Positions 9,482-37,218 of a stretch of DNA of 45,335 nt are shown piece after piece. Within the stretch, counting starts at the first letter, position 1. Every line of letters starts with the position of its first letter. Position numbers and translations under genes: made by a program. The stretch covers positions 1 to 45,335 of the forward strand of contig CAZKKK010000001.1 of the NCBI GenBank assembly GCA_964553365.1, given 5' to 3'. Below the pieces are notes generated by a model that worked only from the letters and a program-made list of their open reading frames with translations, made no database searches and was not told where the DNA came from. Source of the DNA: an uncultured Gammaproteobacteria bacterium. Its GTDB lineage: Bacteria; Patescibacteriota; Microgenomatia; UBA1406; GWC2-37-13.

Positions 9482-9525
9482 ATGCCCCAAATACTAACTG
9501 TTAATTCTGAACATCCGCTTAATGA

Positions 9526-11324: not shown

Positions 11325-12206
11325 ATGAAAACAAAAGGGTTTACTCTCATTGAATTGTTGATTGTGGTTGCACTGTTGGGAATCCTTTTGGTCGCGCTCC
11401 TTATCGCCCTCGATCCACTCGAACAAATAAGGAAGAGTCAGGACGTGAAAATGATCTCTGCTTCAAGAGAGATTTATGATTCTCTTTTTCGTTTTAACGC
11501 CAATACGGGCCAAGTTCCCTATGCTGCCGCCATTTCTGGGACTTCTCTTTCTTCAACTGAACCTCAGGACATGATCGTTAAGCTCATCAATAATGAAGAT
11601 TTGAAAAGTGATTTCAACCAGAGGGCTGGTGATATGCTGTCCGAGCTCTATTTCACCGGCAATGCAGATCTTTCGCAGCTTACCTTTTGTTTTATTCCCC
11701 AATCAAAAAGCTATAAAAGGAGCGGTGATACTCTCTATGACAAAATGGGGAATATAATCGACTGTTCGCAAAGCAGCTGCCATCTTTGTTTCGGCATTAA
11801 GTCATCAGTGTCGGAGGAAGGGTTATCCCTACCGGAGACCGTTCAAAATACCATTACACCGTCTGAACAATTGCCTTATTGTGAGGGGTTCGATTCAGAA
11901 AAACCTCAATACCCATGGACCTGCAACAACTCTTCCAAATGGAGCCAATATGGCTGCAGCAACTATTGCGTGGGGGATTTTGGGTGCGATTCCTTTTGCC
12001 CAGCTGGCCAAAGACACCTGAAGAAGAATTATTATGCTATCGGAAGTCCTGATTTTGAAAGATGCTTAAGTCGGTCTGGGGAAACATCTGAAGATTACTG
12101 TGTTTCAGGAATCGTTGCTCATTGTTCCGAAATGTCGTATCCGTCATCATCTTCGGACTTTCTGTGGGGATGCCTCAATCCAAGAAGACCTTACGCATGG
12201 AAGTAA
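11325..12206 (+). CDS. Type IV pilin / pseudopilin-like protein with a Cys-rich C-terminal domain
   Basis: MKTKG/FTLIELLIVVALLGILL is a textbook prepilin (class III) signal with the G-F-T-L-I-E cleavage/methylation motif. The C-terminal ~150 aa hold about 19 Cys. Confidence 0.85.
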   Translation: MKTKGFTLIELLIVVALLGILLVALLIALDPLEQIRKSQDVKMISASREIYDSLFRFNANTGQVPYAAAISGTSLSSTEPQDMIVKLINNEDLKSDFNQRAGDMLSELYFTGNADLSQLTFCFIPQSKSYKRSGDTLYDKMGNIIDCSQSSCHLCFGIKSSVSEEGLSLPETVQNTITPSEQLPYCEGFDSEKPQYPWTCNNSSKWSQYGCSNYCVGDFGCDSFCPAGQRHLKKNYYAIGSPDFERCLSRSGETSEDYCVSGIVAHCSEMSYPSSSSDFLWGCLNPRRPYAWK

Positions 12207-13286: not shown

Positions 13287-13598
13287 CTATATGATTCCTT
13301 GTCCTACTCCAAAAATATAGGCAAGCACTCTCGTAATAAAGAACGAAAGCACTAATAATACGAATCCAATGACTCCTGCGGTTATCTTTGCGTTCGCTCC
13401 CTTTAATTTTTCCGGTGAACCTTGAGAAGTCACATAATCGAAACCACCCCACATAAGGACAAAGAAAAGGATAATGCCTGCGATACTTATGACAAAGGGA
13501 ACCACATTATTGATGATATCTCCTATATTGGTAAAACCGACAAGAGGGTTACATATTCTTTGGCCACTCACAGTTATATATCCATTTGGACACGGCAT
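13287..13598 (-). CDS. Small two-TM pilin-like protein (TrbC/VirB2 or T4SS-pilin-like)
   Basis: It is a TM-loop-TM hairpin: VVPFVISIAGIILFFVLMWGGFDYVTSQGSPEKLKGANAKITAGVIGFVLLVLSFFI. The loop motif matches the C-terminus of the 23690..24436 protein. Confidence 0.6.
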   Translation of the reverse strand: MPCPNGYITVSGQRICNPLVGFTNIGDIINNVVPFVISIAGIILFFVLMWGGFDYVTSQGSPEKLKGANAKITAGVIGFVLLVLSFFITRVLAYIFGVGQGII

Positions 13599-13604: not shown

Positions 13605-14270
13605 TTATTTCAATCTTGATAATACTACTACTAGTATAGCGTGTATTCCTAAAGAAAACAAAAGAGGGGTTTGGATTGTCTGGATGAAGTAGGAGATGGG
13701 AGGTACTACCTGATTTATGAAGGCGGGAGAAAGCCGAATCGGAAATAGATAATACAAAAGGACAAATATAAGCCCAAGCGGGATAAGATATCCCGCATCA
13801 ACTAAATCCTGTTTTGATGAAAACATATTTGCCGTAATGGTGAGAATCAAATATCCAAACAATATGGTAATCCACCACGCATTTCCAGGGAATAGCTTCG
13901 TCTGAATTATCATCCATACAGAAACAAGAGCTCCAAGAAATGGAGCTATCCCAACCAATAGTGAACGAACAAAGTCATGGGGATTTTTTTCATACAAAAC
14001 ATGCCCTAACTTTACCTTTCTTCCCTCAATGACGGGGAAAATTCGAATTTCTTGTGGATGGAGATTGAGTATGAGTGCCGCTAAATAATGGGATACTTCA
14101 TGGATAATAGTTCCCGGCAAGTAAATGAGGGAAATGAGATACACGATCAGCCGGTCATTTTTTAGTATTTTCTTCAACACGGGATATGATTTTTGAAGTG
14201 AAAATCTTGAGAGTATAAATATGCCTACTATTTCAGCGATAAATACTACTATCTGCGTTAAGATATTCAT
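13605..14270 (-). CDS. Polytopic membrane protein with an HExxH motif (putative intramembrane zinc metallopeptidase)
   Basis: It has 5-6 hydrophobic helices. HEVSH (IIHEVSHYLAA) lies at a helix end. A 4-nt overlap links it to the upstream gene, and 6 nt separate it from the pilin-like gene. Confidence 0.6.
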   Translation of the reverse strand: MNILTQIVVFIAEIVGIFILSRFSLQKSYPVLKKILKNDRLIVYLISLIYLPGTIIHEVSHYLAALILNLHPQEIRIFPVIEGRKVKLGHVLYEKNPHDFVRSLLVGIAPFLGALVSVWMIIQTKLFPGNAWWITILFGYLILTITANMFSSKQDLVDAGYLIPLGLIFVLLYYLFPIRLSPAFINQVVPPISYFIQTIQTPLLFSLGIHAILVVVLSRLK

Positions 14271-14484: not shown

Positions 14485-17400
14485 TCACTTCTGTGGTTGC
14501 GTCCCGTCTGGAGTTGGTACTGGTTGCTCTTTTGGGATTTGCGCTTCTGGCTCTGGTTTTTTTTCATCCTTTTGAGGTGGTGTTACTGGTGCATCAATGT
14601 CAAACTGTTCTTGAACTTTACTTGAGCCACATGACGAACATATGATTGTTGCATTAGGCACCACTTCAGTGGTAAATCTCGCTGCACAGATATTACACAT
14701 ATATCTCTTCCCTTGCTTTTTCTCCTTCTTTTCAAGAAGGGTCGCTTTCTGTATATTGAAAACGAACTGTTGCCCATCAAAGTCGACCACTACTTCATCT
14801 CCTGGATTGGCTTTCTTCTCTATGATAAGGCCTGATATTGGATTTTCAACAATCCTCTGGATTGCGCGGCGAAGAGGTCTTGCACCAAACACTGGATCGA
14901 ATCCATTTCGTGCGATTTCCTTGATCGCTGCCTCGGTATATGCAAAGCCCATATCCTGGTCTTCCATGGATTTTTGGACTCCCTTGAGTTGTATTTTGGC
15001 GATTCGAGTCATATGTTCAAACCGAAGTGGTTCAAACATTATCACTTCATCAAAACGGTTTACCAGTTCAGGACGGAAAAACTTCAGCATTTCATTCATC
15101 ACTTTTTCCTTCAAGGAGGCAAACTTTTTCTTGAAGACCTCTTCATCGATCTTGTGTTTTTCTTCCACATGTTGATCGAGAGGAAGGTCTGAACCGAAAT
15201 ATTCATTTATCGATTTTGTCTTCCAAACAGTCTCACCTTGCGCTTTTGTCCATACCGACTGCCCAACCACTATCACTTCTACTCCGGAAGGAGAGAATGT
15301 ATGGATGTCCCAATATGCGACAGGCAATTGTCCTTTGTCAGCTGTCTGATCGACAAGATAATCCCGTAGAAACCCTGTCTGCCAATCACCCGTACTCAAC
15401 TTTCTTCTCCAAAACCGATCCTTATAGGTGACTATCTCTTGCTCATCGGGAGTGAAAGCATGTGTTTTCAGTGCGGCTGTAGGAAGCTGCTCATCAGGAG
15501 CATCGGGAAGAGCGTTTATTACGACTCCTTCCTTAAAATATGAAATAAGGTTTGAATGTTCCCATGTCTTTGCGGTAGTCGATGTCTTGAAAAAGACTTC
15601 TCCCGCTTTCGTGATCATTTCAATTCCAGTCGAGGACATCGCATGCGTATCGAATCCATGAAGGGGTAATTCGAGCTTTTCAGTTGATGGAGTCTGGGGA
15701 GCTACTTCTCCCTCTTTCGGTGCAACAACTGCAGCTTTCACTTCTTGACCCGCAAAATAATCTAGCAACATCTTTTCCGACCACTTCCCTTGAGATTCTT
15801 TTTCTAGGATTTTACTCCCTATGGTGAGAATCTCTCGTCCTCTTGGTGAGAATGTGTATGAAGTTATCGTTGATGGCTCTTCAATCTCAGTTTTTCCACC
15901 CTTCATCAACTCCTCCTGGATGATCTTTGATCCCAAGTTTGAAGTACAGATTACAACGGCATTCTTGAATGAAACGACATGTCCCTTGTTGTCGGTAAGT
16001 CGTCCATCATCCAATATCTGAAGGAGAATGTTAAAAATATCCGGATGAGCTTTTTCAACTTCATCGAAAAGTACGACACAGTATGGTTTTCTTCTTACCG
16101 CTTCCGTCAATTTTCCACCCTCTTCGTAGCCAACATATCCAGGAGGTGCCCCAAGAAGTTTGGCAACCTCATGTTTTTCCATATACTCCGTCATGTCGAA
16201 GCGAATCATCGCATCCTCGCTCCCAAATAGAATATCCGCGAGTGTCTTTGCTAATTCTGTTTTTCCAGTACCCGTAGGTCCCATGAATATAAACGATCCA
16301 ATAGGGCGATTTGCGGACTTCAAACCAGCTCTCCCTCTTCGAACCGCTTGGGCCACTGAGCTCACCGCTTCTTCTTGGCCGATAAGTCGTTGATGCATGA
16401 TATCTTCCAACTTCGCAAGCTTTTCAGTTTCACTTCCTGCAATCTTATTCACAGGAATGCCGGTCCAACGAGAAACTATGTCCTTAATCATGGAAACGGT
16501 CACTGCCGTTGTCGTTTGTGCTTTTTTGGTATTGAACTCATCTTTTTTTGTATTCAAGTCCCCTTCGATATCCGACAATTTTGATTTGATGATGCGCGCG
16601 CGTACGTTGTCTCCGGATTTCGTTGACTCCACCATTTCTTGATTTAGTTGTTTTATGCGCTCATCCAAAGACTTTATTTCCTCAGGAAGAGAAATGAGAG
16701 GAAGTCGTACCGCTGAAGCGGATTCATCGATCAAGTCTATTGCCTTATCGGGTAAGAATCGTTCTCCTACATAGCGTTTTGAAAGGCGGACTGCCGCCTC
16801 AACCGCATCATCTGGAATCTGGACACGATGGAAAGCTTCATATTTTCCCTTCAAAGCTTTAAGCATCTTTATTGCCTGCTCTTCTGTTGGCTCTGGAACG
16901 ACGACAGGTTGGAAACGTCTCTCAAGGGCTGGATCCTTCTCGATATACTTTCTGTATTCCGTTAAGGTAGTTGCTCCAATGATCTGCATCTCTCCTCTGG
17001 ACAGGCCTGGTTTCAATAAATTTCCAGCGTCTCCTGAACCCTCTCCGCCTGCGACGATATTGTGGATTTCATCAATGAAGAGAATTATCTGCCCTTTACT
17101 TGCCTTTACCTCATCGATGACGCCCTTCATGCGTTCTTCAAACTCACCCTTGTGTGAGGCACCCGCCATAACACTCATCAAATCCAAACCAAGAATTCTT
17201 TTGTTTAACAAAGGTTCCGGTACTTGTTTATTGACGATTTGTTGAGCTAAACCTTCAATTATTGCGGTTTTTCCAACTCCAGCCTCTCCAACCATTACTG
17301 GATTATTCTTACTTCTTCTCGAAAGGATATGAATAACTCGCTCAATTACTTGAGATCTCTCAATCACTGGATCGAGCAATCCCTGTGCGGCGCGTGCTGT

Positions 17401-18288
17401 GATATCGATGGTAAATTGGTCAAGTGAACTTTTTTTCTTTTCCGCTTCTTTTTGATCGGTCAATAGACCCTCTTTGTTTCCTGTGATCTTTTTATTTAGC
17501 TCTTCCTTTTTCAGTCCTAATTTTGCAAGTGCACGTGCGCCAATTCCTTCACCCTCTTCATATAACGCAAAAAGGATATGCTCTGGTGAAATAAACTCAA
17601 ATCCAAGTTTTCGGGCGATAATAAGAGAATTATCAATAATTCGTTTCAGTCGAGGAGACATTTGGGGTGGAACAAGTTTTGCAGGCTCACGTTTATACGT
17701 TTGGGCAAGTTCCGCCTCAATTTGTTGCGGTTGGACCTTCATTTCCATCAAAAGCTTATATATTTCTCCATCTGCGAGTAATCCGTGGAGCATGTGTTCA
17801 CTATCGATAAACGCACTTCCCATTTCCTTTGCTTTTGCCTGCGCTGTGACGAATACCCTATTGGATCGTTGCGTAAGATGTGTCATCAAATCCAAATCGG
17901 TTCTCTTTTGCGAATTCATCGTTGAGTTTAAAGATGCCCCTAAAGGTTTTGCAGGTGGGACTTGACCTGGTGCTTGCGGTTTGTCGCTCGCTGGACCAAC
18001 AGGTTTTACCGGTGGTTGACTATTCAACAACTCTTGGACCCTTACTTGTTCCGGTGTGAGTACTTTTTGGGGTGGAGCTCCAATACCGTTATAAGCCTGT
18101 CCTCCAGGTGGGTTTCCGATACCATTATATGAAGTTGTTTGAGGCCTTGTGACGGTCTGTTGAGGAATAACGACTCCTGGCTGTGTCATTGCAGGAGGCA
18201 TCTGTGATGGTGCTCCAGGAACTGGTGAAATCGAAGGAGTGCTTGCATTCGAGTTGTTATTTTTTATAAAATCAAAAAAGCCAGACAT
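14485..18288 (-). CDS. ClpC/ClpB-family double-ring AAA+ unfoldase with atypical extensions
   Basis: It has two Clp_N repeats (FIDSEHMLHGLL and FISPEHILFALY). D1 has Walker A GEAGVGKTAI and Walker B ILFIDEIH. The middle region is short, about 70 aa. D2 has Walker A GPTGTGKTELAKTLA, Walker B VVLFDEVEKAH and sensor-1 CTSNLGS. FRPELVNRFDEVIMF and GARPLRRAIQ follow. It also carries a P/Q/G-rich N-terminus, a ~240-aa insertion in D2 and a CxxC...CxxC tail. Confidence 0.93.
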   Translation of the reverse strand: MSGFFDFIKNNNSNASTPSISPVPGAPSQMPPAMTQPGVVIPQQTVTRPQTTSYNGIGNPPGGQAYNGIGAPPQKVLTPEQVRVQELLNSQPPVKPVGPASDKPQAPGQVPPAKPLGASLNSTMNSQKRTDLDLMTHLTQRSNRVFVTAQAKAKEMGSAFIDSEHMLHGLLADGEIYKLLMEMKVQPQQIEAELAQTYKREPAKLVPPQMSPRLKRIIDNSLIIARKLGFEFISPEHILFALYEEGEGIGARALAKLGLKKEELNKKITGNKEGLLTDQKEAEKKKSSLDQFTIDITARAAQGLLDPVIERSQVIERVIHILSRRSKNNPVMVGEAGVGKTAIIEGLAQQIVNKQVPEPLLNKRILGLDLMSVMAGASHKGEFEERMKGVIDEVKASKGQIILFIDEIHNIVAGGEGSGDAGNLLKPGLSRGEMQIIGATTLTEYRKYIEKDPALERRFQPVVVPEPTEEQAIKMLKALKGKYEAFHRVQIPDDAVEAAVRLSKRYVGERFLPDKAIDLIDESASAVRLPLISLPEEIKSLDERIKQLNQEMVESTKSGDNVRARIIKSKLSDIEGDLNTKKDEFNTKKAQTTTAVTVSMIKDIVSRWTGIPVNKIAGSETEKLAKLEDIMHQRLIGQEEAVSSVAQAVRRGRAGLKSANRPIGSFIFMGPTGTGKTELAKTLADILFGSEDAMIRFDMTEYMEKHEVAKLLGAPPGYVGYEEGGKLTEAVRRKPYCVVLFDEVEKAHPDIFNILLQILDDGRLTDNKGHVVSFKNAVVICTSNLGSKIIQEELMKGGKTEIEEPSTITSYTFSPRGREILTIGSKILEKESQGKWSEKMLLDYFAGQEVKAAVVAPKEGEVAPQTPSTEKLELPLHGFDTHAMSSTGIEMITKAGEVFFKTSTTAKTWEHSNLISYFKEGVVINALPDAPDEQLPTAALKTHAFTPDEQEIVTYKDRFWRRKLSTGDWQTGFLRDYLVDQTADKGQLPVAYWDIHTFSPSGVEVIVVGQSVWTKAQGETVWKTKSINEYFGSDLPLDQHVEEKHKIDEEVFKKKFASLKEKVMNEMLKFFRPELVNRFDEVIMFEPLRFEHMTRIAKIQLKGVQKSMEDQDMGFAYTEAAIKEIARNGFDPVFGARPLRRAIQRIVENPISGLIIEKKANPGDEVVVDFDGQQFVFNIQKATLLEKKEKKQGKRYMCNICAARFTTEVVPNATIICSSCGSSKVQEQFDIDAPVTPPQKDEKKPEPEAQIPKEQPVPTPDGTQPQK

Positions 18289-18327: not shown

Positions 18328-18910
18328 AATGATAAAAAAAATACTTCCTATCTCCATTTTCGTTCTTGTCTTTGTTTCCATTCTCCTCATTTGGTTCCAA
18401 AGCACCCTCAATAAGGGGGGTTCTGGTAACTCTTCCCTGACTCCTACTATAGTCCCAGGAAAACAAGGAAGTGGATATACTCCCCTTACCGGAAAGACTA
18501 CTGGTGGAAATGCTGTGAAACAACTCTCTCCAGAGGAACTGAAAAAGAAACTTCCCATCATCGCTCCGGATTTCACCCTTGATTATTCTCCTCGCATGCA
18601 AAGATATGTGGTTACTGAAACGGGAGAAGGAGCCGCTAATTCCTACAATGATTGGATTGAACAGAATCCTGCTGCCGCAAATGAGCTCCAGGGTGCCGTT
18701 GTTACCAAACAGACAGTGGAAGAGCTGAATGCGGTACTTGACAATGCAAAGAAGAATCAACAGACCCCAGAGGAAAAGGCAGTAGAAAAAGCCACTGCAT
18801 TTACCTCCACATTCAAAATGCTCAACAGTCTTCCTTACATACTCATGAATATCCCAACCCCTCAATCGTCATTGAATCCTACAACTCCTCCAAAAGCACC
18901 AAGTCCGACT
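18328..18910. repeat. Copy 1 of a 583-bp perfect direct repeat
   Basis: It is identical to 20213..20795. Identity was judged by direct reading of both boundaries and by identical translations in three overlapping frames of the supplied ORF track. Confidence 0.9.
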
Positions 18911-19624
18911 GAATCCATGTCTCCAACGCCGAATGAGACACAACCCACGAAAGCCACTTCACCAACTGCGTCCCCGACCATACCGAGCGGGTCCACGAGC
19001 AACATACTCCCTAATCCTCTACCTGCCATATCATCTAAGGCTTTGAGCTTTAAACAATCCATAGGGCCTTGCATTTCAAATAAATCTCTCTATGAAGTGG
19101 CGTCATCTAAAACCGGTATTCAATGGGAAATACTTGCCGCAATTCACTATAACGAAGGTGGATGCGGTCAGAATAGCTCATTAGTGAGCGGGCGCGCGAT
19201 CGGAACGAACGAACCAGATATCGTACGAGGTGGTGGTTGTAGTAGCGGGGTAAGTGGGGAGGGAATTCCTTATCCTCTTCCCGGTGGTGGGTGTGGTTTT
19301 AAGACTCTCCTAGACTCGGCGATTTATGCAGGGAATCACATAAAGGGCAAGATCGGGAAAGTCCCCTCCAACTTTCAGGAACTTGCGAAGGCGTTTACTC
19401 GTTATAACGGAGGGGGCAACTCTAACTGTGGAAAAACTCCTTATACTAATTGCCCACGATTGTATGAAGGAGAAGATGATCCCTACGTCATGAACTTCTT
19501 CGATAGCAAACATGAAACGATGTATCTTGTGTACTGCGCGGATTTGACAAAATGTAATCCACCTCGGTCCTATGTTCGCCCTGGGGCCGGCACCATTATT
19601 AGATTAGTTACTAACCAAATATGA
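18329..19624 (+). CDS. Secreted/anchored protein: shared N-module + PTS linker + lysozyme-like (lytic-transglycosylase-like) domain
   Basis: It has an N-terminal TM/signal (ILPISIFVLVFVSILLIWF), the 194-aa shared module and a Pro/Thr/Ser linker. The C-terminal domain has WEILAAIHYNEGG (candidate catalytic Glu) and FTRYNGGG, which resembles the A-Y-N-x-G motif of SLT-family transglycosylases. Several Cys are present. Confidence 0.7.
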   Translation: MIKKILPISIFVLVFVSILLIWFQSTLNKGGSGNSSLTPTIVPGKQGSGYTPLTGKTTGGNAVKQLSPEELKKKLPIIAPDFTLDYSPRMQRYVVTETGEGAANSYNDWIEQNPAAANELQGAVVTKQTVEELNAVLDNAKKNQQTPEEKAVEKATAFTSTFKMLNSLPYILMNIPTPQSSLNPTTPPKAPSPTESMSPTPNETQPTKATSPTASPTIPSGSTSNILPNPLPAISSKALSFKQSIGPCISNKSLYEVASSKTGIQWEILAAIHYNEGGCGQNSSLVSGRAIGTNEPDIVRGGGCSSGVSGEGIPYPLPGGGCGFKTLLDSAIYAGNHIKGKIGKVPSNFQELAKAFTRYNGGGNSNCGKTPYTNCPRLYEGEDDPYVMNFFDSKHETMYLVYCADLTKCNPPRSYVRPGAGTIIRLVTNQI

Positions 19625-20196
19625 ACTTTCTACAAAGCACCAAAAACAAGATTGTAGTATTTATATCTCTTTTTTTTCTTTTTGGAATTATATTCCTACT
19701 GTCAAAAAATACCTTCATTGAAACAAAAAAATCAAACAATATCTCTCCTACGAGCATAAACACCCAAAACAGCAGCGAAAAAAATCCTTCATATAAAAAA
19801 GGGGGTCTAATTCCTACCTATCCGCCCAAAGAAGGGAGTGGAGTGGATCTAAGGACTCCCTTAGTAACACAATCAATAATAGAAATCGAAAAATTATATT
19901 CCTCTCTTCCTTATGAGGTAACAATAAATACACCTTCAAACCAGGAAGTTTCCATTGTCATTCCAGATAAAACAGCACAAACAAATCCATGGACTCTCCA
20001 AGTCTATGTTTTTGGTCTAGATTATCAACTTGCCAAAAATGATCCAGAATATGCCTCAGCAAAAAATTCTTTCAAATATTCCGTCGCTTCTCTTTATAAA
20101 TGGATTGAGGAAAAAGGTGCAGATCCCAAAAAAATAATGATCATCTGGGGAGATAAAGAACTTATACAGAACAAGTCGCAAGAGTGGCTTGAATAA
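19621..20196 (+). CDS. Membrane-anchored hypothetical protein (partner of hydrolase 1)
   Basis: Its ATG overlaps the upstream stop (ATGA). It has an N-terminal TM (IVVFISLFFLFGIIFLL) and an extracytoplasmic domain of about 160 aa. Confidence 0.65.
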   Translation: MNFLQSTKNKIVVFISLFFLFGIIFLLSKNTFIETKKSNNISPTSINTQNSSEKNPSYKKGGLIPTYPPKEGSGVDLRTPLVTQSIIEIEKLYSSLPYEVTINTPSNQEVSIVIPDKTAQTNPWTLQVYVFGLDYQLAKNDPEYASAKNSFKYSVASLYKWIEEKGADPKKIMIIWGDKELIQNKSQEWLE

Positions 20197-20212
20197 TGTA
20201 GTATGAATATAT

Positions 20213-20795
20213 AATGATAAAAAAAATACTTCCTATCTCCATTTTCGTTCTTGTCTTTGTTTCCATTCTCCTCATTTGGTTCCAAAGCACCCTCAATAAG
20301 GGGGGTTCTGGTAACTCTTCCCTGACTCCTACTATAGTCCCAGGAAAACAAGGAAGTGGATATACTCCCCTTACCGGAAAGACTACTGGTGGAAATGCTG
20401 TGAAACAACTCTCTCCAGAGGAACTGAAAAAGAAACTTCCCATCATCGCTCCGGATTTCACCCTTGATTATTCTCCTCGCATGCAAAGATATGTGGTTAC
20501 TGAAACGGGAGAAGGAGCCGCTAATTCCTACAATGATTGGATTGAACAGAATCCTGCTGCCGCAAATGAGCTCCAGGGTGCCGTTGTTACCAAACAGACA
20601 GTGGAAGAGCTGAATGCGGTACTTGACAATGCAAAGAAGAATCAACAGACCCCAGAGGAAAAGGCAGTAGAAAAAGCCACTGCATTTACCTCCACATTCA
20701 AAATGCTCAACAGTCTTCCTTACATACTCATGAATATCCCAACCCCTCAATCGTCATTGAATCCTACAACTCCTCCAAAAGCACCAAGTCCGACT
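20213..20795. repeat. Copy 2 of the 583-bp perfect direct repeat
   Basis: It is identical to 18328..18910, with a period of 1885 nt. Confidence 0.9.
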
Positions 20796-21380
20796 AATGG
20801 AGCATCCAATCCTACACCGACCAAAGTAGCTTCCAATCCACCAGCTTCGGGAACTGGATATGTATATTACTCACAATGTAGTGGTCCATACGATGCGCTT
20901 CCACTTCCGAATGGATGCACTATTTGCTATGCCGGATGTGGACCGACAAGTGCTGCAATGCTACTTTCAACATTTATTGATAAATCCCTCACCCCTCCAA
21001 AAACGATCGACCTCATGGATAAAGCAGGTGTTCGTATTGGATGTTATGGCTCTTATGTATCAGAGATATACTCCTATTTGAAAAGAAGGGGTGATCTTAA
21101 AGTCACCGATTTCATAATTCCTTCTGAACAAGCCCTCTCTGCAAAAAGTGTTGCGAAGGACTTCAAAGGATACACAGACGCAGGATACGCAGTGTTCGTT
21201 CTTGCCAACTTTAAAGTGGGAAGTGGCGGCCATTATTTCCTGGTCACAGCCGTAAACGACAATGGAGATATTCTTGCTTACGACCCATACTACGGAAAAC
21301 AACAAACCCCCCCTATAAATGAAAATAGATATGCACCAGCACCGTATTATCGTTATGCATTTGCCGTAAAAAAATCATGA
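20214..21380 (+). CDS. Secreted/anchored protein: shared N-module + linker + C39-like papain-fold cysteine peptidase
   Basis: It carries the same 194-aa N-module. The C-terminal domain has YYSQ (oxyanion Gln), AGCGPTSAAMLL (nucleophile Cys context typical of Peptidase_C39_2), GSGGHYFLVTAV (His) and LAYDPY (Asp). Confidence 0.78.
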   Translation: MIKKILPISIFVLVFVSILLIWFQSTLNKGGSGNSSLTPTIVPGKQGSGYTPLTGKTTGGNAVKQLSPEELKKKLPIIAPDFTLDYSPRMQRYVVTETGEGAANSYNDWIEQNPAAANELQGAVVTKQTVEELNAVLDNAKKNQQTPEEKAVEKATAFTSTFKMLNSLPYILMNIPTPQSSLNPTTPPKAPSPTNGASNPTPTKVASNPPASGTGYVYYSQCSGPYDALPLPNGCTICYAGCGPTSAAMLLSTFIDKSLTPPKTIDLMDKAGVRIGCYGSYVSEIYSYLKRRGDLKVTDFIIPSEQALSAKSVAKDFKGYTDAGYAVFVLANFKVGSGGHYFLVTAVNDNGDILAYDPYYGKQQTPPINENRYAPAPYYRYAFAVKKS

Positions 21381-21847
21381 TCCCAAAATCAATAATTAAA
21401 TTCTATTTAGTGCCCGGTGTTATTGTGTTAGTGATAATCATTTTGGTGCTCATCATTCCTTTAGGGAAAAAGAAGGAGACAATCCAAACTCCATCACCAA
21501 CTTCCGAGACCCCAGTAAACATCTCAATTACCAAGGCTGTTTCTCGCCCTCTGACTCCATCTTCAGCAAATAAAATCTCCCCCACCCTTATTCCCATTCC
21601 AGACTTTACTGGTGCCGAGGCAAATCAAGAACTTCCCCCTGACATAAAGATATTGGGGGAACAAAAAACGACACTTCGCAGGCTTACCCCCCTCACGCTT
21701 CCTTTTGCGGTAATAAACTTTGATTATGAGAACGATATGTTTGTAGTACTCCTATCAGAACCGAAAGACCAAAGCAGGGTACAATTCAATGCCTGGAGAG
21801 ATCAAAATTATTCCGCCTTAACGGACTCTAAATTTGTATTCAATTGA
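21377..21847 (+). CDS. Membrane-anchored hypothetical protein (partner of hydrolase 2)
   Basis: Its ATG overlaps the upstream stop (ATGA). It has an N-terminal TM (LVPGVIVLVIIILVLII) and a PTS linker. The C-terminal ~55 aa resemble part of the shared N-module. Confidence 0.65.
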   Translation: MIPKSIIKFYLVPGVIVLVIIILVLIIPLGKKKETIQTPSPTSETPVNISITKAVSRPLTPSSANKISPTLIPIPDFTGAEANQELPPDIKILGEQKTTLRRLTPLTLPFAVINFDYENDMFVVLLSEPKDQSRVQFNAWRDQNYSALTDSKFVFN

Positions 21848-21919: not shown

Positions 21920-23602
21920 ATGCCTCGTGTATTTACCTCAGGAATTGATTTCATTAAAAAAGCAATTTTGGTAGTGGTGGTCTACTATATAGTTTTCTCC
22001 ATATTTGGCAACGTAATCAATAGGAATCGTCCTCAAATTGATGATAAGGTTATTATTGCCGCCCAACAAAAAGAAATGTATAAGGTGTTGGACAACAATA
22101 AATTGAGTCAAACCAAGGCTGGGAAGATTTCGATAGCTCTCTATCGATTTACTAATTGTGCATTTATAGGAGAGCTTTGCACAGACAAGCCGATTGCGGA
22201 TGATAGCTACTTCAAATCAAGCCTCTTGGGTAAAATGTCATCGCTGATAGCACTTCCGTATCAAAATCCCCCGGCCTCAGGTGCCTATTGGGTAGCTGAC
22301 ACTCTTCAAAAAGCCGGCTTTATACCCGCCTCATATGCGGCAGAGGGTCTTGGGTATTCTTCATTGAAGCCTCTCATAAATATATGGAAAATTTTTCGTG
22401 ATGTTTCCTATCTCCTTATTGTCCTCATACTCGTCTCTATTGGATTTATGATTATGTTCCGCATGAAACTCAATCCTCAAACGGTTATATCAGTAGAAAA
22501 TGCACTCCCAAAGATAGTCGTCGCATTACTTCTCATTACTTTTTCATTCGCGATAGCGGGTTTCTTAATCGATATTACATATCTCCTCATACTTCTTTCC
22601 ATAAATCTTCTCAGTACCGGGGACGTGTATGTCAAAGTCCAAAACCAACTTCTTAATTCGAACTTGGGAACGTTGTGGGACTATATTCTCCCTAAAAATG
22701 GAACACTACTCGACCCAGTGTCTCGAGTATTTTATTTGGGCGATGCATTCGCTGCATTATTACCGAATGAAATAAATAATGCAGTTAAGATTCTGTCAGG
22801 TGGAGCTATTCTCTATTTTGTAGGAGCCTCCATGGTGAGAAAAGTCGAAGGAACGGGATTAGTAGCGTTTTTAAATGGCATAAACATTATAGGAAATGGT
22901 GTGGGAAATCTTTTTCAGGGGATAATTGGCACTATTGTGACTTTGGTGATTTATTCAAGTCTAGGTATAATGGCCGCAAATGGGCTTGGACTTATTTTTG
23001 GGATAATCGTCTTCCTTACTTTCACAAGTATATTGTTCACTATTTTCTTTCTCCTATTCCGATCTTATTTGCAAATTATCCTCATGATTGTTTTTGCCCC
23101 GGTTATCTTGCTCCTTGAAGCTGTGCCGGGAAAATCTACTTTCGGTTATTGGATTAAAGGGTTAATTGGAGAACTTATTACATTCCCAGTCGTTATTACG
23201 ATGCTCTTGGTGGGAAAAATGATGACGACCACCTTATCATATCCAGGTGACTATTGGAAAGCTCCATTTATTGGAAATCTGAATACCACAGGGTTTGGAG
23301 TAATAATGGGAGCTGGATTGATTTTTCTTATCCCCGACATTGTTAAACTAGTCAAAGATGGACTTGGAGTGAAGCCTCTTCCATTTAATCTTGGTGTCGG
23401 CACCTTTCTTGGTGGTGCTGGAGTACTGGGAGGAGGAGCTATGGGTATCTTGCAGCAATTTAGTACCTTGAATATGGGTATGGCTGCATTTGGAGATCAG
23501 GGTATCATTTCAAAATTACGAGGTAAGGGTGAGATTCCAAAAGAAAAAGCAAAGACTCCAGCTGTTACAACGGGTGTCGTTGTCCCAGGTCAGCCAACAT
23601 AA
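21920..23602 (+). CDS. Large polytopic integral membrane protein (possible VirB6/TrbL-like channel component, speculative)
   Basis: It is 560 aa. An N-terminal TM and an extracytoplasmic loop of about 130 aa come first. At least 8-10 hydrophobic helices and a Gly-rich C-terminal region (GVGTFLGGAGVLGGGAMG) follow. No catalytic motif was recognised. Confidence 0.7.
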   Translation: MPRVFTSGIDFIKKAILVVVVYYIVFSIFGNVINRNRPQIDDKVIIAAQQKEMYKVLDNNKLSQTKAGKISIALYRFTNCAFIGELCTDKPIADDSYFKSSLLGKMSSLIALPYQNPPASGAYWVADTLQKAGFIPASYAAEGLGYSSLKPLINIWKIFRDVSYLLIVLILVSIGFMIMFRMKLNPQTVISVENALPKIVVALLLITFSFAIAGFLIDITYLLILLSINLLSTGDVYVKVQNQLLNSNLGTLWDYILPKNGTLLDPVSRVFYLGDAFAALLPNEINNAVKILSGGAILYFVGASMVRKVEGTGLVAFLNGINIIGNGVGNLFQGIIGTIVTLVIYSSLGIMAANGLGLIFGIIVFLTFTSILFTIFFLLFRSYLQIILMIVFAPVILLLEAVPGKSTFGYWIKGLIGELITFPVVITMLLVGKMMTTTLSYPGDYWKAPFIGNLNTTGFGVIMGAGLIFLIPDIVKLVKDGLGVKPLPFNLGVGTFLGGAGVLGGGAMGILQQFSTLNMGMAAFGDQGIISKLRGKGEIPKEKAKTPAVTTGVVVPGQPT

Positions 23603-23689: not shown

Positions 23690-24436
23690 TTAACTGAATC
23701 CTGGTATCTTAAGTATATCGACTCCAATTATCTTAAGGATGAGCACTGAAAAAATGATAACCATGAGTCCCGTGATACAATTTGTCATCATCTCCTGAGC
23801 CTTCTTCACCTTCTCGGCGTTCCCAGCTGATGTTTGCATTTGAAACGCAGCAAGCATGATGCAGAGCATAGAAATACCCCCCGCAAGCCCTATCCCGGTC
23901 CTCATTATATTATTTGCGATAAAGTCCCCAATGTTCCCGTTAAAGCATCCCAAAGCAGTCCATGCACCTGATTTGTTATGTGAACAGTCTATGCAGAGCG
24001 TTTGTTCTGAAGGTGATTTGATATTTTGACACAAAGGCTCCAAAGCGGAAAGTGGCTCCGCTGGGGGTTCGATAATGCAGACGCATCCTGCATCTGCCTG
24101 CGGCCCACTTGGCGTCCCTTCTGCACACGCTTTTACTACTATCGACTTCTGTTGCTGGATCAATTCATTTGTGACTTTGTCAGTGAGTGGTTGAAGGATA
24201 TCTCGACCTGCATTAAGAACAATATTGTTGTAGTCAATGGTCCCCGGCTTAATGATGGGAGATTTACAGCATTTTTGAAAATCCCCCGTTCTATTGGGAT
24301 CTCCACAATTTATACCCGGTTGAGGAGCATCTGTAACGCCAACCACCTGGGAATAGGAGGTCTTCTGCGTAATTACCAGTACCGTAATGACGAATAATAT
24401 CGCCAATATTTTTCTTACCATATATTTACTATACAC
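23690..24436 (-). CDS. Secreted Cys-rich protein with a C-terminal two-TM pilin-like (TrbC/VirB2 or T4SS-pilin-like) module
   Basis: It has a signal peptide (ILAILFVITVLVITQKTSYSQ) and an ectodomain of about 150 aa with about 12 Cys. These are followed by GIGLAGGISMLCIMLAAFQMQTSAGNAEKVKKAQEMMTNCITGLMVIIFSVLILKIIG. Confidence 0.7.
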   Translation of the reverse strand: MYSKYMVRKILAILFVITVLVITQKTSYSQVVGVTDAPQPGINCGDPNRTGDFQKCCKSPIIKPGTIDYNNIVLNAGRDILQPLTDKVTNELIQQQKSIVVKACAEGTPSGPQADAGCVCIIEPPAEPLSALEPLCQNIKSPSEQTLCIDCSHNKSGAWTALGCFNGNIGDFIANNIMRTGIGLAGGISMLCIMLAAFQMQTSAGNAEKVKKAQEMMTNCITGLMVIIFSVLILKIIGVDILKIPGFS

Positions 24437-24442: not shown

Positions 24443-27400
24443 TTACTTCTTTTTTCCTTCAGAATTTTCAAAAGCCTTTTTAATTTGAGCTATCAAAATG
24501 AAAAGAAGGAATGCAGGGAGATATTTATTAAGGATATCAAAGAACATATCGTTTTTTGTTCCTCCGAATTTTTCCCTAAGCGATTTGGACCACACCGCAT
24601 GATTGCGTTTTCTTTTCCAGAAAAGCGGAACGTCGGGAATCGTAAACTCTTTATCAATTCCGGGTATTTTAAATTTACCCGTCTTTGAATCTCCCCCGAG
24701 TAATCCTGCGAGTTTTGAAGTTGATATTTTTTCCGGCATCTTCATGGGCTTTTTCAAAAAAGGCAGTGTCAAATATACCGGTTCTTTTTCTGGCTCTGAT
24801 GCAATATTGTATGGCGTCCCTGGAACAAGGTTTCGCGCTTCAAGAGCGGTGATAAAGCGATCAATATCGGAACTGTCCCACTCCCACACTCCCGTTTTCC
24901 TATGAACGCTCTCTGCCGCCATTGAATTGAACCGCCCTATTCCGAATGCACCCATCATCGCCCGCGCTTGTGTGTCTTTTTTCATATACATTATCGTCAT
25001 TGACGCTAAGTTTGAGGCAAGTTCATTTGCATAAGGAAATCCAATGATGCCATCCATCGCGCCCCACACTTTTTGGATGATCTCAATCACGGGGCCGAAA
25101 TCCTTCTTACCGTTTATTGCCATGTCGCGCAGAGTTTTCACTAACTGAGTGATAGGTTCCGAAACGCCTTTTTCAACGGCTGCGACGTCTCGGAGAGATC
25201 TTGCAAGTACGCTTTCTCCTCCTCCTCGGAAGGGGATGAAACTCATATCCGTTTCGTCCAATGCAATAGTATATTTTGATTTGCGTTCTTGTGCACCTCC
25301 ATGTTTGAAAAAAGGGACAAGGTCTACATCGACAAATTCCTTTCCCTTATTGGGCCCAGTTGTATACTTGAAATCGATATAATTGCTTTGGATGTGACCG
25401 AATAATTTCAAAACATTGTTAAGTCGCGTCTGGTCCATCTTCCCTTTTGCGATAAGAGGACCAAGGAGGGCTTTGATTGTGTCTGGATTCATTTCATAAT
25501 CTATTTCTCCATATTTCCACTCTTCTCCCGGCTTCCCACTATCACGTTTTATATACATTTGTCTACTCACGTCTCTCCGCAGCATTTGTTCAGCCAAGAG
25601 CATGTCTGTCATGATGTTGTCGAATTTGTCAGACTCTCCCTCAAGACCCATATCTTTCATCACTTTTTTATACCTACTCGTTCCGTCGGGGGAAAGCCTA
25701 TCACGATCCATGCGGATTATTTTGCTCGGCAAACGCTTCACGATGACGCGCGCAAGCATCCGATCTAAAAATTCGAATGATGCTGCCGCTTCCACTTCTC
25801 CCTCAATATCGTCCGGGGCGCTCAGACCGCTGCGGACTTTCCCTAGGACTTCATTCCTCTTCGCATCACGGATCTTATCCATGTATTTACCCAGGTCTTT
25901 TGGATCTTTATCGAAATATTTTTCAAATATATACTTAAATAAAGCATCTTTTTGTTCATACAGTGCTGATTGCTCTTTACTCATTCCAAAAGTACTCCGA
26001 GCTTTTAAAAGATCATCATCCCCTGCTTTTGGATGTGGACCAAGCTTGGTAACATAATCCTGCAAAAGTTCATAACCGATATTCTCTAAATGTTGAAAAG
26101 TTTTCAAATGGTTTGTTTTGACATAACTTTGTCCTTTTTCATTTGTTACTTTATCGCTGATATAAAGACTATCAAGTTGCCATGCAGTACGCCAACCCTT
26201 GCGCTGCATAGGACCTCCCACTAGACCAATATTGTTAAGCTTATCGAAGAATGTCTGTTCAGGGAGCGGCTCTCGCCCTTTAATGAAGGATGCCTTATAT
26301 TTCTCTGCCTTATCCCACAGCGCGTGATGGTCGGTAAATGCCTGACTCCCTTTAAAACTGTCAACGGGGAGGAAAAAGATTGGATCAAGAAGATTTGGTC
26401 CTCCCGCGAAACGAGCCAAGAGGTGTTGGGGATTAAAAGCCATGAGAGCAGTAGCATCCTGGTGATAATAGCTTGTGAATGTGGATCCTCCCGTCTCATT
26501 CAGATGGGGATCTGCATGGGCAGCCATCTCAACCTCAGTGAGAAACATTCCACGTGAAGCTCCAACAGCCATAGTAAGAGCGGCGGTAAGCCGTTCCTCT
26601 GAAGCATCTCCAAACATCGCACTTAGTTGCTCCAAAACCCGACCTTCGATTTGGGTGGTGTGCTTATTCAGTTGTGCTGTAAACATTCCAGCCGAGTGTC
26701 GCCAATCATTTTTCGCGAAGCCCTCTTCAATCATTTTGTTATACAAACCAAAAGCACTCTGAAAAATATCATTATCGGGCAACAACATCATCTGATCGAA
26801 GTCCAACATCGATGTCTCTGCTGCGAATTTTGCAAGTTGACCATAAAATCCTGTCTGGGCATCAACCGGATGAAGAAAGACCGCGCGGGAATTATGAGTA
26901 TATCTTCGAGCTTCGATATAATGATCAACGATTTGATCTAGGTAATGTGCAAAATGCGAGCCGCTCGCCTCTTCTGCTTCCAACTTGGTTCTAAATCGGG
27001 GACGTGGTTTAAGGCTCCCTTTGACATTGACTGAAACGGTTTCCGTATCCTGCTCCAACCGTTGGAAAAACTTCGGAGCTTCTTTTCCGCTTTTTTCAAG
27101 TTCTACCTGATACGGTGCTAAGCTCGTTCCCAGGAGAGTAATGCGGCGTTTGAGCTCGCTTTTTACCGGAGTGATACCCTTCATGATATCCTCTTGTTCG
27201 ATGCTCTGGAAAAACTCCTTCGGGCTTTCATGATCTAGCCTTGTATACAACTTCGCGAACAAAAGAGATATCTTCACTTCCATTTGCTCCGAAGCCTTTT
27301 GGGCTATCTTTGTTTTATCGAGGCTCGGATCTTTTTTTATTTCTTCTGCTTGGATCTTTTCGTAATAATCGACAAACTTAGCGGGGGAATACAACGCTTT

Positions 27401-28168
27401 TACCAAATCTTTTTCTGCCCCTTCATTGAAATGACCCGAAAAAATATGCTCCCAATTTTGATTGAATGCCGATTCTGCGGATCTCTCTTCCATTGCTCTT
27501 CTTTGGGATTCTTCATTTTGAACCATGTCTGTGCTTACTTCTTGAACACCAAACATCTTATTTGCATCCTTTTCTGCAATATTATTTTCTTTTGCATATT
27601 CAACGCCTGCTTTTTGAATTTTTCCAAATACATCGGCTGAGGCAGAATCAAAGTTTGCAACGGGAGCAATCTTCCGCACTTCTTCCGCGAGATTATCTAC
27701 TCCCACTTTCCCCTCGGTGATCGACTTCAATAGATCATAAAAATACGGAGCATTTTGATCGTTGATTTCTTCTAATCGTATATGGGAGCTTATTTTCTGA
27801 AGAAGCTTAGTGCTCTCAGGAGTGGGGATAGGAGCCTTTGGATCTTTCGGTGTGGGTTTATCAGCTGCAGGTATTTTTTCAGGAGTATTTCGTGCGGCAT
27901 AAAACATTTTTTGGATAAGCTCCGTTATTGAGTTTGCCTTCCCCCGCTCTGTTCCCGTATCATTCTTATCTCCCGATCCAAAATCATGTTGTCGTTTATT
28001 ATTTTGAATAAGATCGATCTCTATATTTTGCTTTATATCTGTCACCCATTTTCCCAGTCTCACAAATTCTTCCTTCAACTGCTCGGCAGATTGAGCTTTC
28101 ACTTTCTGCTCAATTTTCTGTTCAACAGCTGATGAGCCCGAATTGTTTTCCACAGAATTCTCTGCCAT
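24443..28168 (-). CDS. Giant (1241 aa) hypothetical protein, predicted tail-anchored
   Basis: It is a single uninterrupted ORF with no signal peptide and no P-loop (no GxxxxGK[ST]). The only hydrophobic helix is at the extreme C-terminus (YLPAFLLFILIAQI). It ends 6 nt upstream of the pilin-like gene. Confidence 0.8.
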   Translation of the reverse strand: MAENSVENNSGSSAVEQKIEQKVKAQSAEQLKEEFVRLGKWVTDIKQNIEIDLIQNNKRQHDFGSGDKNDTGTERGKANSITELIQKMFYAARNTPEKIPAADKPTPKDPKAPIPTPESTKLLQKISSHIRLEEINDQNAPYFYDLLKSITEGKVGVDNLAEEVRKIAPVANFDSASADVFGKIQKAGVEYAKENNIAEKDANKMFGVQEVSTDMVQNEESQRRAMEERSAESAFNQNWEHIFSGHFNEGAEKDLVKALYSPAKFVDYYEKIQAEEIKKDPSLDKTKIAQKASEQMEVKISLLFAKLYTRLDHESPKEFFQSIEQEDIMKGITPVKSELKRRITLLGTSLAPYQVELEKSGKEAPKFFQRLEQDTETVSVNVKGSLKPRPRFRTKLEAEEASGSHFAHYLDQIVDHYIEARRYTHNSRAVFLHPVDAQTGFYGQLAKFAAETSMLDFDQMMLLPDNDIFQSAFGLYNKMIEEGFAKNDWRHSAGMFTAQLNKHTTQIEGRVLEQLSAMFGDASEERLTAALTMAVGASRGMFLTEVEMAAHADPHLNETGGSTFTSYYHQDATALMAFNPQHLLARFAGGPNLLDPIFFLPVDSFKGSQAFTDHHALWDKAEKYKASFIKGREPLPEQTFFDKLNNIGLVGGPMQRKGWRTAWQLDSLYISDKVTNEKGQSYVKTNHLKTFQHLENIGYELLQDYVTKLGPHPKAGDDDLLKARSTFGMSKEQSALYEQKDALFKYIFEKYFDKDPKDLGKYMDKIRDAKRNEVLGKVRSGLSAPDDIEGEVEAAASFEFLDRMLARVIVKRLPSKIIRMDRDRLSPDGTSRYKKVMKDMGLEGESDKFDNIMTDMLLAEQMLRRDVSRQMYIKRDSGKPGEEWKYGEIDYEMNPDTIKALLGPLIAKGKMDQTRLNNVLKLFGHIQSNYIDFKYTTGPNKGKEFVDVDLVPFFKHGGAQERKSKYTIALDETDMSFIPFRGGGESVLARSLRDVAAVEKGVSEPITQLVKTLRDMAINGKKDFGPVIEIIQKVWGAMDGIIGFPYANELASNLASMTIMYMKKDTQARAMMGAFGIGRFNSMAAESVHRKTGVWEWDSSDIDRFITALEARNLVPGTPYNIASEPEKEPVYLTLPFLKKPMKMPEKISTSKLAGLLGGDSKTGKFKIPGIDKEFTIPDVPLFWKRKRNHAVWSKSLREKFGGTKNDMFFDILNKYLPAFLLFILIAQIKKAFENSEGKKK

Positions 28169-34236: not shown

Positions 34237-34280
34237 CACCCTCCTTGACAAGCACAGAAAGGTGTGTTAAGTTATTCCTT

Positions 34281-34337
34281 GAGCATTACTACTCGTCGTC
34301 CCCTACATACGAGCGGTAGTGATGCTCCTTTTTTTTT
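34281..34337 (+). terminator. Rho-independent terminator
   Basis: GAGCATTACTAC-TCGT pairs with ACGA-(GCG bulge)-GTAGTGATGCTC, giving 12 + 4 bp with one G-U pair and a 12-nt loop. A C and then nine T (34329-34337) follow, 45 nt after the stop at 34236. Confidence 0.75.
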
Positions 34338-34340
34338 GCC

Positions 34341-34484: not shown

Positions 34485-34666
34485 ACACAGACTATACAGA
34501 ACTCAAAACTTCCTGTCAAGCCCTATAGAAAAATACATATGTACTATAAGATATCCTATATTTATATATTCATAAATAATACCGTCCTGATAGGCTATAT
34601 ATAAAATGTGGATAACTAATATATGAATGTGTATATGTATATTATGATACAATTGCGCGATGTTTT

Positions 34667-34675: not shown

Positions 34676-34689
34676 TTGAGCTATTCTTT

Positions 34690-37183: not shown

Positions 37184-37193
37184 AACGGTCTTT

Positions 37194-37202: not shown

Positions 37203-37218
37203 CTTATTCAAATTCTGA

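Follow-up and report, generated by a model that had tools for sequence, protein, structure and literature searches.

Two putative cell-wall hydrolases with one homogenized anchor module and head-specific small partners at a pilin-associated locus of Patescibacteria

Why should two neighboring enzymes of different chemistry begin with the same stretch of protein, and why should each be followed by a small membrane protein of its own? The question is raised by a four-gene locus in a 45,335-nt stretch of DNA (positions 1 to 45,335 of contig CAZKKK010000001.1, forward strand, assembly GCA_964553365.1; hereafter the window) that GTDB places in the Microgenomatia (GWC2-37-13) of the Patescibacteriota. 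The four genes lie on the forward strand in the order A1-B1-A2-B2 and span positions 18329-21847. A1 and A2 are the enzymes and B1 and B2 the small partners; head1 is the lysozyme-like head of A1, a cassette is an enzyme with its partner, and the N-module is the N-terminal region common to A1 and A2. Related loci from other assemblies are labeled L001 and so on, and homologous proteins from profile searches P0176 and so on. The answer we favor, with modest confidence, is that A1 and A2 are a split hydrolase pair of the VirB1/PrgK/CwlT kind that serves the type IV secretion system (T4SS)-like apparatus of Patescibacteria, a group that also goes by the name of candidate phyla radiation (CPR), and that each enzyme has a head-specific control subunit. 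The genes, and the direct repeat found in them by base-by-base comparison and repeat search, are as follows.

18329-19624, + strand: A1, 431 aa, lysozyme-like enzyme; transmembrane (TM) anchor aa 5-27 (nt 18341-18409), N-module domain and helical stalk aa 65-175 (nt 18521-18853), disordered Pro/Thr/Ser-rich linker aa 176-224 (nt 18854-19000), head1 aa 225-431 (nt 19001-19621).
19621-20196, + strand: B1, 191 aa, head1-specific partner; TM helix aa 4-30, disordered linker, globular alpha-beta-beta-beta-alpha-beta-alpha domain aa 78-191 (nt 19852-20193).
20214-21380, + strand: A2, 388 aa; N-module aa 1-194, short Pro/Thr linker, C39_2 head aa 206-388 (nt 20829-21377).
21377-21847, + strand: B2, 156 aa, C39-head-specific partner; TM segment aa 11-29, Pro/Thr-rich linker, C-terminal domain aa ~95-156 (nt 21659-21844), an N-module homologue by profile comparison.
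18328-18910, + strand: copy 1 of the direct repeat, encoding the A1 N-module (aa 1-194).
20213-20795, + strand: copy 2 of the direct repeat, encoding the A2 N-module.

The initial annotation had described a shared module with two differing heads, each coupled through an ATGA overlap to a small TM-anchored partner, and the reading frames, overlaps and motifs that it quoted are all present. The start/stop overlap occurs at both the A1/B1 and the A2/B2 junction, and the same 4-nt overlap is found in the related loci L001, L012, L013, L014 and L015; B1 and A2 are separated by 17 nt, and the A1 start lies 40 nt from a divergent ClpB-like gene. A hydropathy scan gives each of the four proteins a single N-terminal hydrophobic segment. 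The repeat is 583 nt long, covering the first 582 nt of A1 and A2 and one base 5' of the ATG, and its copies are 100% identical, although an assembler can flatten near-identical repeats and the true identity of the two N-modules may be slightly lower. Identity breaks off sharply within the Pro/Thr/Ser-rich linker, and the DNA 5' of the two copies is unrelated. Among the motifs are HYNEGG (aa 273) and RYNGGG (aa 358) in A1, and YYSQCSG (aa 218), AGCGPTS (aa 240), GGHYF (aa 338) and AYDPYYG (aa 355) in A2. The 45-kb window holds no further copy of the N-module, B1 or B2.

What, then, are the two heads? A1 matches no Pfam or NCBIfam family at E-values up to 0.1, and its head finds no match among PDB sequences, either as a single sequence or as a 61-sequence profile. 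In an AlphaFold2 model of A1 based on a 61-sequence alignment, the predicted local distance difference test score (pLDDT) is ~90 for aa 65-175 and >95 for aa 225-428, with disorder in between. A Foldseek search of the PDB with the modeled head returned wall glycosidases of the lysozyme superfamily in 50 of 50 cases among the matches listed, including goose-type (g-type) lysozymes, MltC, MltE, MltF, FlgJ and the type VI secretion system (T6SS) effector Tge (4kt3), the best with an E-value of 0.011 and a probability of 0.99. Against BFVD the best match has an E-value of 3.7e-6 and is followed by tail lysins, the PRD1 transglycosylase and LT_GEWL proteins. All 88 head1 homologues keep E276, within IHYxEG, which is the candidate catalytic glutamate by alignment only; S284, S287, G288, E295, D297, Y359-N360-G361 (a candidate AYNxG-like motif) and the Cys residues are near-invariant in the same set. 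By its modeled fold, the A1 head is a divergent GH23-like lysozyme or lytic transglycosylase, and this is the activity we would predict for it.

The A2 head belongs to Peptidase_C39_2 (PF13529, papain-like clan CA; 38.3 bits against a cut-off of 24, E 2.5e-9), the match spanning aa 217-359 and profile positions 4-143 of 143. Across 24 homologues its candidate catalytic residues do not vary: Q221, C242 (in AGCGPT), H340 (in GGHYF) and D357 (in YDP). Searched against the PDB, the A2 profile gave a weak match of 27 residues round the catalytic histidine to 9l5u, a DUF4150 protein (E 0.08), on which we have not built. The earlier proposal that both heads are of wall-hydrolase type stands, by fold for A1 and by family for A2.

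The module in front of these heads has a structure and a family of its own. In the A1 model it comprises a TM helix (aa 8-27), a disordered stretch, a helix-strand-strand-helix-strand domain (aa 68-126) and a helical stalk to ~aa 173. A Pfam scan of 14 N-module sequences at E-values up to 10 gave no consistent family; a lone SpoIIIAH match (E 0.08) was not used. A search of 1.84 billion representative proteins with a core profile gave 28 matches. In those outside the close family the module follows an N-terminal TM segment, is often doubled and stands ahead of varied heads. Pfam identifies Peptidase_C39_2 in P0176, P0178, P0185 and P0187, more weakly in P0189 and P0193, together with Peptidase_M15_4 in P0179 and CHAP in P0182 and P0184; by eye only, we recognize an M15-like LAS peptidase in P0183, an amidase-2-like head in P0188, another papain-like head in P0190 and SLT-like heads in P0191, P0194 and P0195. 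Within this clade the N-module was found with two heads only. One C39-type homologue, P0100 (L020:1404-2747), carries the core duplicated in tandem, LKNKLPISSTHFTIDYS... and LKQKLPLFTPDFSINYS...; these tandem copies, and the two copies in many distant relatives, mark the ~50-aa core as a repeatable unit. Fusion to C39_2, M15_4, CHAP and further heads in distant relatives shows a real, reusable module and, on the broad scale, bears out the initial annotation's idea of one targeting/anchoring module joined to different wall-attacking chemistries.

Why the two copies are so alike can be read from their relatives. Over the first 200 aa, the two N-modules of one genome are 98-100% identical in the window, 85% in L012 and 61%, with near-identical patches, in L001; at the DNA level, the L012 copies are 100% identical over the first 240 nt and ~80% over the remainder. 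Over the same 200 aa, N-modules of different genomes that carry the same head type share 43-52%. The heads, by comparison, are 74-83% identical between genomes and are among the most conserved parts, above the N-module: between the window and L001 the identities are 80% and 74% for the two heads, 61% for a polytopic protein encoded downstream, 56% for B2, 52% for B1 and 44-53% for the N-modules. Heads and partners have their orthologues in the other genomes, whereas the N-modules cluster by genome and not by the head they carry; this pattern is the mark of recurrent conversion between the two neighboring gene copies, so that the N-modules of one genome evolve in concert. An assembly artefact as the only cause is rejected, since two independent assemblies show partial homogenization; conversion tracts that differ in length in three independent assemblies likewise speak against it.

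Many metagenome contigs with A1- or A2-type genes are only 1.5-4 kb long and break in or near the N-module or beside B1 (L019 and L020, for example). Such breaks are typical of assemblers at near-identical repeats and indirectly suggest that homogenized N-modules are common in the clade. Two perfect repeats flank head1-B1, so that homologous recombination between them would excise precisely that cassette; genomes with cassette 2 only at this position fit such an excision. Sharing of one N-terminus within a genome recurs with two further, unrelated modules. The CHAP and lysozyme enzymes of L021 share a signal peptide and a Cys-rich domain (39% identity over 186 aa, E 2e-33), and in L015 an M14::C39-like enzyme and a lysozyme-head enzyme share a signal peptide followed by 'EVPMIDRGDGYAVYP...LFNxF', of which the CHAP enzyme has only the LFNF part.

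The small partners have no detectable similarity to each other. Profile-profile comparison with hhalign aligns the N-module with B2 over a strand-strand-helix core (E 8.8e-5), tblastn gives weak reciprocal matches between the two, and the B2 profile matches both modules of P0180 (2.7e-9 and 6.7e-9), a headless two-module protein picked up at 1.3e-7 when the N-module profile was run against the whole library. Judged by these profiles, the C-terminal domain of B2 is a copy of the N-module domain. This copy and the gene conversion of the N-modules go beyond the initial annotation. In its AlphaFold2 model (pLDDT >90 for aa 80-190), B1 has a TM helix joined by a disordered linker to a helix-strand-strand-strand-helix-strand-helix domain. 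The order of its secondary-structure elements resembles that of the N-module, with one extra strand; profile comparison of B1 with the N-module and B2 gave no signal beyond the TM segment, and we do not claim B1 as an N-module paralogue. Foldseek of B1 against the PDB returned unrelated matches only (best E 0.21, probability <=0.28). A lysozyme inhibitor (PliG, Ivy, MliC/PliC) and a VirB8/NTF2-like fold were considered for B1 and rejected, as no PDB fold match was found. Searches of PDB sequences with the B1 and B2 profiles gave nothing useful.

Each partner follows its own head. Behind head1 comes B1, usually with an ATGA overlap, both in the window and in 8 of 8 related loci, recognized by profile in L014, L015, L017, L018 and L021 (E 1e-33 to 1e-45) and by tblastn in L001, L012 and L013. 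The pairing holds across four different N-terminal architectures of the enzyme: examples other than the N-module are a VirB2-like pilin domain in L014, a secreted form in L015, a Cys-rich domain in L021, and a cytoplasmic tail with a TM segment, with or without DUF11, in L017 and L018. B2 comes behind the C39 head wherever examined, in 15 of 15 loci (among them the window, L001, L003, L005-L012, L015, L019 and L020); in L015 the B2 homologue (E 2e-12) comes after a C39-like domain that is there fused to Peptidase_M14. The predicted co-variation of head and partner thus held in the relatives surveyed, and partners independent of head type were not seen. Given the common topology, the tight coupling and the head specificity, the most economical reading is that B1 and B2 are control subunits that would bind their heads one to one.

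What do these cassettes serve? Homologues come from Candidatus Roizmanbacteria and other Microgenomates, and the loci, compared across independent assemblies, follow one order: RecF, a 103-aa pilin, a 5-TM protein and ClpB on the minus strand; the hydrolases and a ~560-aa polytopic protein on the plus strand; then a 248-aa pilin-like protein and a ~1240-aa protein on the minus strand, Jag and YidC. The locus is single-copy and keeps its synteny with housekeeping genes in >12 loci. Cassette 2, the C39 enzyme with B2, is present in every Roizmanbacteria/Microgenomates locus, including all seven GTDB species representatives found. Cassette 1, the lysozyme enzyme with B1, is an addition in the window, L001/L002, L012, L013, L019 and L020, and always lies upstream of cassette 2. 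The neighbors in the window are as follows.

13287-13598, - strand: VirB2-like pilin, 103 aa; PF18895 at 39.1 bits, above the cut-off; synteny conserved.
13605-14270, - strand: 5-TM protein, 221 aa, five hydrophobic segments, no family match.
14485-18288, - strand: ClpB-like AAA+ protein (Pfam), 1267 aa, divergent to A1; left border of the hydrolase slot.
21920-23602, + strand: polytopic protein, 560 aa, ~10 hydrophobic segments by hydropathy; directly downstream of the hydrolase slot.
23690-24436, - strand: pilin-like protein, 248 aa, with a C-terminal VirB2-like 'T4SS_pilin' domain, aa 176-236.
24443-28168, - strand: giant protein, 1241 aa, one C-terminal TM segment; syntenic member of the locus.

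The ClpB-like gene adjoins the slot in all related loci, down to 53% ClpB identity (L015, L016 and L021), and the 560-aa polytopic protein is syntenic in L001, L003, L005-L012, L015 and L021. The latter has no Pfam, NCBIfam or PDB match, and tblastn found none in 72,556 plasmids; its position and topology make it a candidate scaffold or VirB6-like channel subunit. The giant protein matches nothing known, PDB sequences included. Two VirB2-like 'T4SS_pilin' proteins are encoded in the window, one above and one just below the Pfam cut-off; the second, the 248-aa protein, matches PF18895 with E 9.2e-5 (22.9 bits, cut-off 26.6) and an NCBIfam ICE pilin-like family with E 0.0024, and shows tblastn cross-matches to the 103-aa pilin regions.

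In other lineages the connection to a T4SS is more direct. The order in L017 and L018 is (pilins), PrgI, TraC-like, VirB4, head1 protein, B1 homologue, dnaN, dnaA, and in L014 head1 is fused to a VirB2-like pilin domain and lies, with B1, ~5 kb from VirB4/TraC-like/PrgI and dnaN. The virB4 operon of L018 continues after head1-B1 with two further genes (9089-10389), one for a secreted protein of 232 aa in which LAS/M15-like motifs can be recognized by eye (HxxxxxxD ... HxxHFH), the other for a small TM-anchored protein of 199 aa; they may be a third pair of hydrolase and partner. The T4SS of Patescibacteria is of the Gram-positive type (MPF-FATA) and lies near the replication origin; in Microgenomatia, arrays of VirB2-like pilins are abundant, VirB6 is 'scarce' and VirB1 is rarely detected (PMC12102498). 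'Peptidase and lysozyme homologues' beside virB4 are reported to be essential in the Saccharibacterium S. epibionticum (PMC12102498), where SEML1_0006, with two lysozyme-like domains and a cysteine proteinase domain, is encoded near SEML1_0008, the gene for a VirB4-type ATPase (PMC10633639 supplement). The window shares this origin-region flavor with RecF, YidC and Jag. As it holds no VirB4, VirB3/PrgI or coupling protein, the link to a T4SS in this genome rests on the pilin-like genes and on the other lineages.

The same neighborhood would suit ordinary housekeeping autolysins for growth, division or daughter-cell separation, with B1 and B2 as their regulators and the pilins nearby through origin synteny only. 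Such an account draws on the core-genome setting of the locus, beside RecF, ClpB, YidC, Jag and LeuRS, on the lack of VirB4 in the window, and on the fact that partner-controlled membrane-anchored hydrolases are common in bacteria (FtsEX-PcsB/CwlO, EnvC/NlpD with amidases, IseA). We consider it rather unlikely, however. Two other CPR lineages have head1-B1 within the T4SS operon, immediately after virB4, and a third has head1 joined to a VirB2-like pilin. The genes for the polytopic, pilin-like and giant proteins always border the slot as well, down to a ClpB identity of 53%.

The pilins also bear on the substrate of the A2 head. Cleavage of leader peptides is the task of classical C39 peptidases, an N-terminal extension of ~170 aa precedes the pilin domain in the 248-aa pilin-like protein, and the Pfam name is silent on substrate; the C39-like head could on these grounds be a protease that processes the VirB2-like pilins or the giant protein, leaving A1 alone to attack peptidoglycan. 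Yet every alternative head identified on the N-module is of a wall-hydrolase family, whether by Pfam (M15_4, CHAP) or by eye (SLT-like, amidase-like), the C39-like domain of L015 is fused to Peptidase_M14 and shares its slot with a CHAP enzyme, and Peptidase_C39_2 is catalogued among the catalytic domains of lysins from phages of Gram-positive hosts (PMC8223927), and we hold a processing role to be very unlikely. On the same evidence the A2 head is probably wall-directed, and from the accompanying heads and the phage-lysin listing we predict the peptide of peptidoglycan as its substrate.

If both enzymes attack the wall, it remains to be asked whose. They could be wall-degrading weapons or wall-breaching effectors, directed at the host or at a competing bacterium, with the N-module as a trafficking tag and B1 and B2 as cognate immunity proteins. 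Each partner gene comes directly downstream of its enzyme and goes strictly with one head type, both proteins share an extracytoplasmic topology, and one N-terminal module per genome is found on different heads in three lineages with three unrelated modules. Pairs of peptidoglycan-hydrolase effector and immunity protein are known for the T6SS (4kt3, among the fold matches of head1, is an example), and the Xanthomonas T4SS has such pairs too. The T4SS context and the epibiotic lifestyle of cultivated Patescibacteria (PMC10633639, PMC12102498) would fit as well. Several observations point the other way. The TM anchor looks uncleaved, which would tether the enzymes to the producer's membrane; from species to species the heads are highly conserved, and the locus does not vary by strain; B1 has no known inhibitor fold, and B2 is a paralogue of the anchor module rather than an unrelated binder. 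Nor did we see orphan immunity genes, silent C-terminal cassettes or mobile-element features at the locus. We judge the effector account unlikely.

It was by analogy with polymorphic effectors that the locus had first been interpreted, and this part of the initial annotation is not supported: the locus is single-copy and syntenic, its heads are conserved, it has no orphan cassettes, and the clade has two heads only. What the locus does share with polymorphic toxin loci (T6SS Tae/Tge with Tai/Tgi, Xanthomonas X-Tfe/X-Tfi, contact-dependent inhibition, Rhs) is a constant N-terminus with alternative wall-degrading C-termini, a head-specific gene directly downstream, and recombination that holds the constant part identical. 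Unlike them, it shows no strain-level hypervariability, orphan cassettes or mobile context; its enzymes are membrane-tethered, both genes are full-length in one operon, and its heads are more conserved than the 'constant' module.

Closer counterparts are the VirB1-type enzymes of MPF-FATA T4SS: PrgK of pCF10, TraG of pIP501 and CwlT of ICEBs1. Like A1 and A2, these have an N-terminal membrane anchor; they unite, as A1 and A2 do between them, a glycosidase of lysozyme/SLT type and a papain-like cysteine peptidase (CHAP or NlpC/P60), and are encoded beside a polytopic VirB6-like subunit, as A1 and A2 are beside the 560-aa polytopic protein. The position of head1 directly after virB4 in other CPR lineages adds to the likeness, although the window itself is without virB4. 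The differences are that A1 and A2 divide the activities between two chains, both of which carry a copy of the anchor module; that the A1 glycosidase has no SLT or GEWL sequence profile match; that the A2 peptidase is C39_2-like and not CHAP or NlpC/P60; and that each enzyme has a dedicated small membrane-anchored partner, for which we know of no description in PrgK, TraG or CwlT.

The T4SS cluster of Southlakia epibionticum, SEML1_0006-0019 (PMC10633639, PMC12102498), resembles the window locus in being origin-proximal and chromosomal and in having VirB2-like pilin arrays and giant membrane proteins. It is essential for epibiotic growth and encodes lysozyme-like, cysteine-proteinase and M15/M23-type hydrolases, a likeness by domain description. 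Unlike in the window, the lysozyme-like and cysteine-proteinase domains occur in one protein, SEML1_0006, and a shared N-module, head-specific partners and gene conversion are not reported there. A functional likeness only, with no sequence relationship, shared N-module or small partners, can be drawn to SpoIID-SpoIIM-SpoIIP of Bacillus, in which two membrane-anchored wall hydrolases, one for glycan and one for peptide, work with a polytopic scaffold.

We therefore return to the split hydrolase pair set out at the beginning. By fold, family and topology, A1 and A2 are bitopic, N-in/C-out, membrane-anchored putative peptidoglycan hydrolases; the GH23/goose-lysozyme-like head would cut the glycan strand and the papain-like C39_2 head the peptide. 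Their context, here and in other CPR lineages, suggests that they open the cell wall locally for the T4SS/pilus-like envelope apparatus of Patescibacteria, with its VirB2-like pilins, polytopic protein and giant protein, so that the two chemistries of the bifunctional VirB1-type enzymes would be placed on two polypeptides. The N-module would be a docking or anchoring module; gene conversion, by keeping this fast-evolving module alike within one cell, would let both enzymes dock to the same lineage-specific partner. The translationally coupled B1 and B2, of the same topology, would most likely bind one to one to their own heads and control them, as safety catch or activator, B2 bringing an additional copy of the docking module.

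Several points weigh against this reading. No sequence profile ties head1 to SLT or GEWL, and its PDB fold matches are individually weak (best E 0.011, TM-score ~0.5 on target). The 45-kb window holds no VirB4, VirB3/PrgI or coupling protein, and neither the 560-aa nor the 1241-aa protein matches anything known. B1 is without a match to a known inhibitor, VirB8 or another fold; the partner roles are putative, as is the substrate of the C39-like head. Finally, gene conversion of tandem paralogues can proceed without selection for a shared docking site.

The surroundings of the slot hold further features. The ClpB-like protein is unusually long, with a Pro/Gln-rich N-terminal extension, an insertion of ~280 aa that separates the second AAA module, where Pfam AAA_2 runs to aa 804, from D2-small (aa 1088 onward) and looks like about four ~45-aa repeats, and a CxxC...CxxC tail that is zinc-ribbon-like; a link to the apparatus, as with ClpV of the T6SS, is conceivable. 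Beyond ClpB, the 221-aa protein is always paired with the 103-aa pilin and may be another unrecognized component (VirB3-like or pilin-handling). Which wall hydrolases occupy the slot between ClpB and the polytopic protein depends on the lineage: CHAP, a Big_5 protein, head1 and B1 in L021 (5331-11583); CHAP, Big_5, M14::C39-like with B2, and head1 with B1 in L015 (4333-11218); and a two-module M15_4 enzyme, a TM protein of 68 aa and a C39-like enzyme that also has two modules in L016 (1275-5565). Where a Big_5 protein comes after a CHAP enzyme, its C-terminal end looks by eye like a module (strand-strand-helix-strand), and such proteins may be the CHAP partner.

Elsewhere in the window, a 293-aa protein (11325-12206, + strand) carries the type IV pilin methylation motif PF07963 (E 2.7e-7); its gene adjoins RecF and a two-component system and places a second kind of pilin near the VirB2-like pilins. 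Large DUF2298 and DUF6798 membrane proteins (32158-36357, + strand, and 36338-37980), encoded with two family-2 glycosyltransferases, look like envelope glycan assembly and seem unrelated to the hydrolases. No tRNA genes were found in the window, and a scan of it for promoters and terminators gave nothing above shuffled expectation.

How much of this is new? The arrangement had been put forward as one not known to have been described. For the combination of a lysozyme with a peptidase at a CPR T4SS that no longer applies, since this theme is already in the literature (PMC12102498). Against the literature searched, the new elements are the Pfam-less head1 family, likely the VirB1 that has been missing; the families of the partners B1 and B2; the family of the anchor module, with its B2 paralogue; and the module's concerted evolution within a genome. 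A wider reading, which we offer as speculation and think doubtful, is that the N-terminal modules of CPR bacteria are lineage-specific 'address tags' that plug any wall hydrolase into the T4SS-like machine, or through it onto a host. Conversion would keep the tags identical, the partners would be immunity or safety proteins, and the whole would form a kit for breaching the host wall in an epibiotic lifestyle, with the Pfam-less head1 family as the missing 'VirB1'.

Patescibacteria make up a large share of bacterial diversity, and in their one genetically tractable representative a T4SS-like apparatus is essential for epibiotic growth (PMC10633639). The locus supplies candidates for the VirB1-type hydrolases that have mostly gone undetected, especially in Microgenomatia (PMC12102498): a Pfam-less lysozyme-like family, a C39-like peptidase, two previously unnoticed partner families and an anchor module homogenized by conversion. 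These are handles on how CPR cells may open their own wall, or that of a host, for the apparatus, and the locus is a natural example of the concerted evolution of a putative docking module across enzymes of different chemistry.

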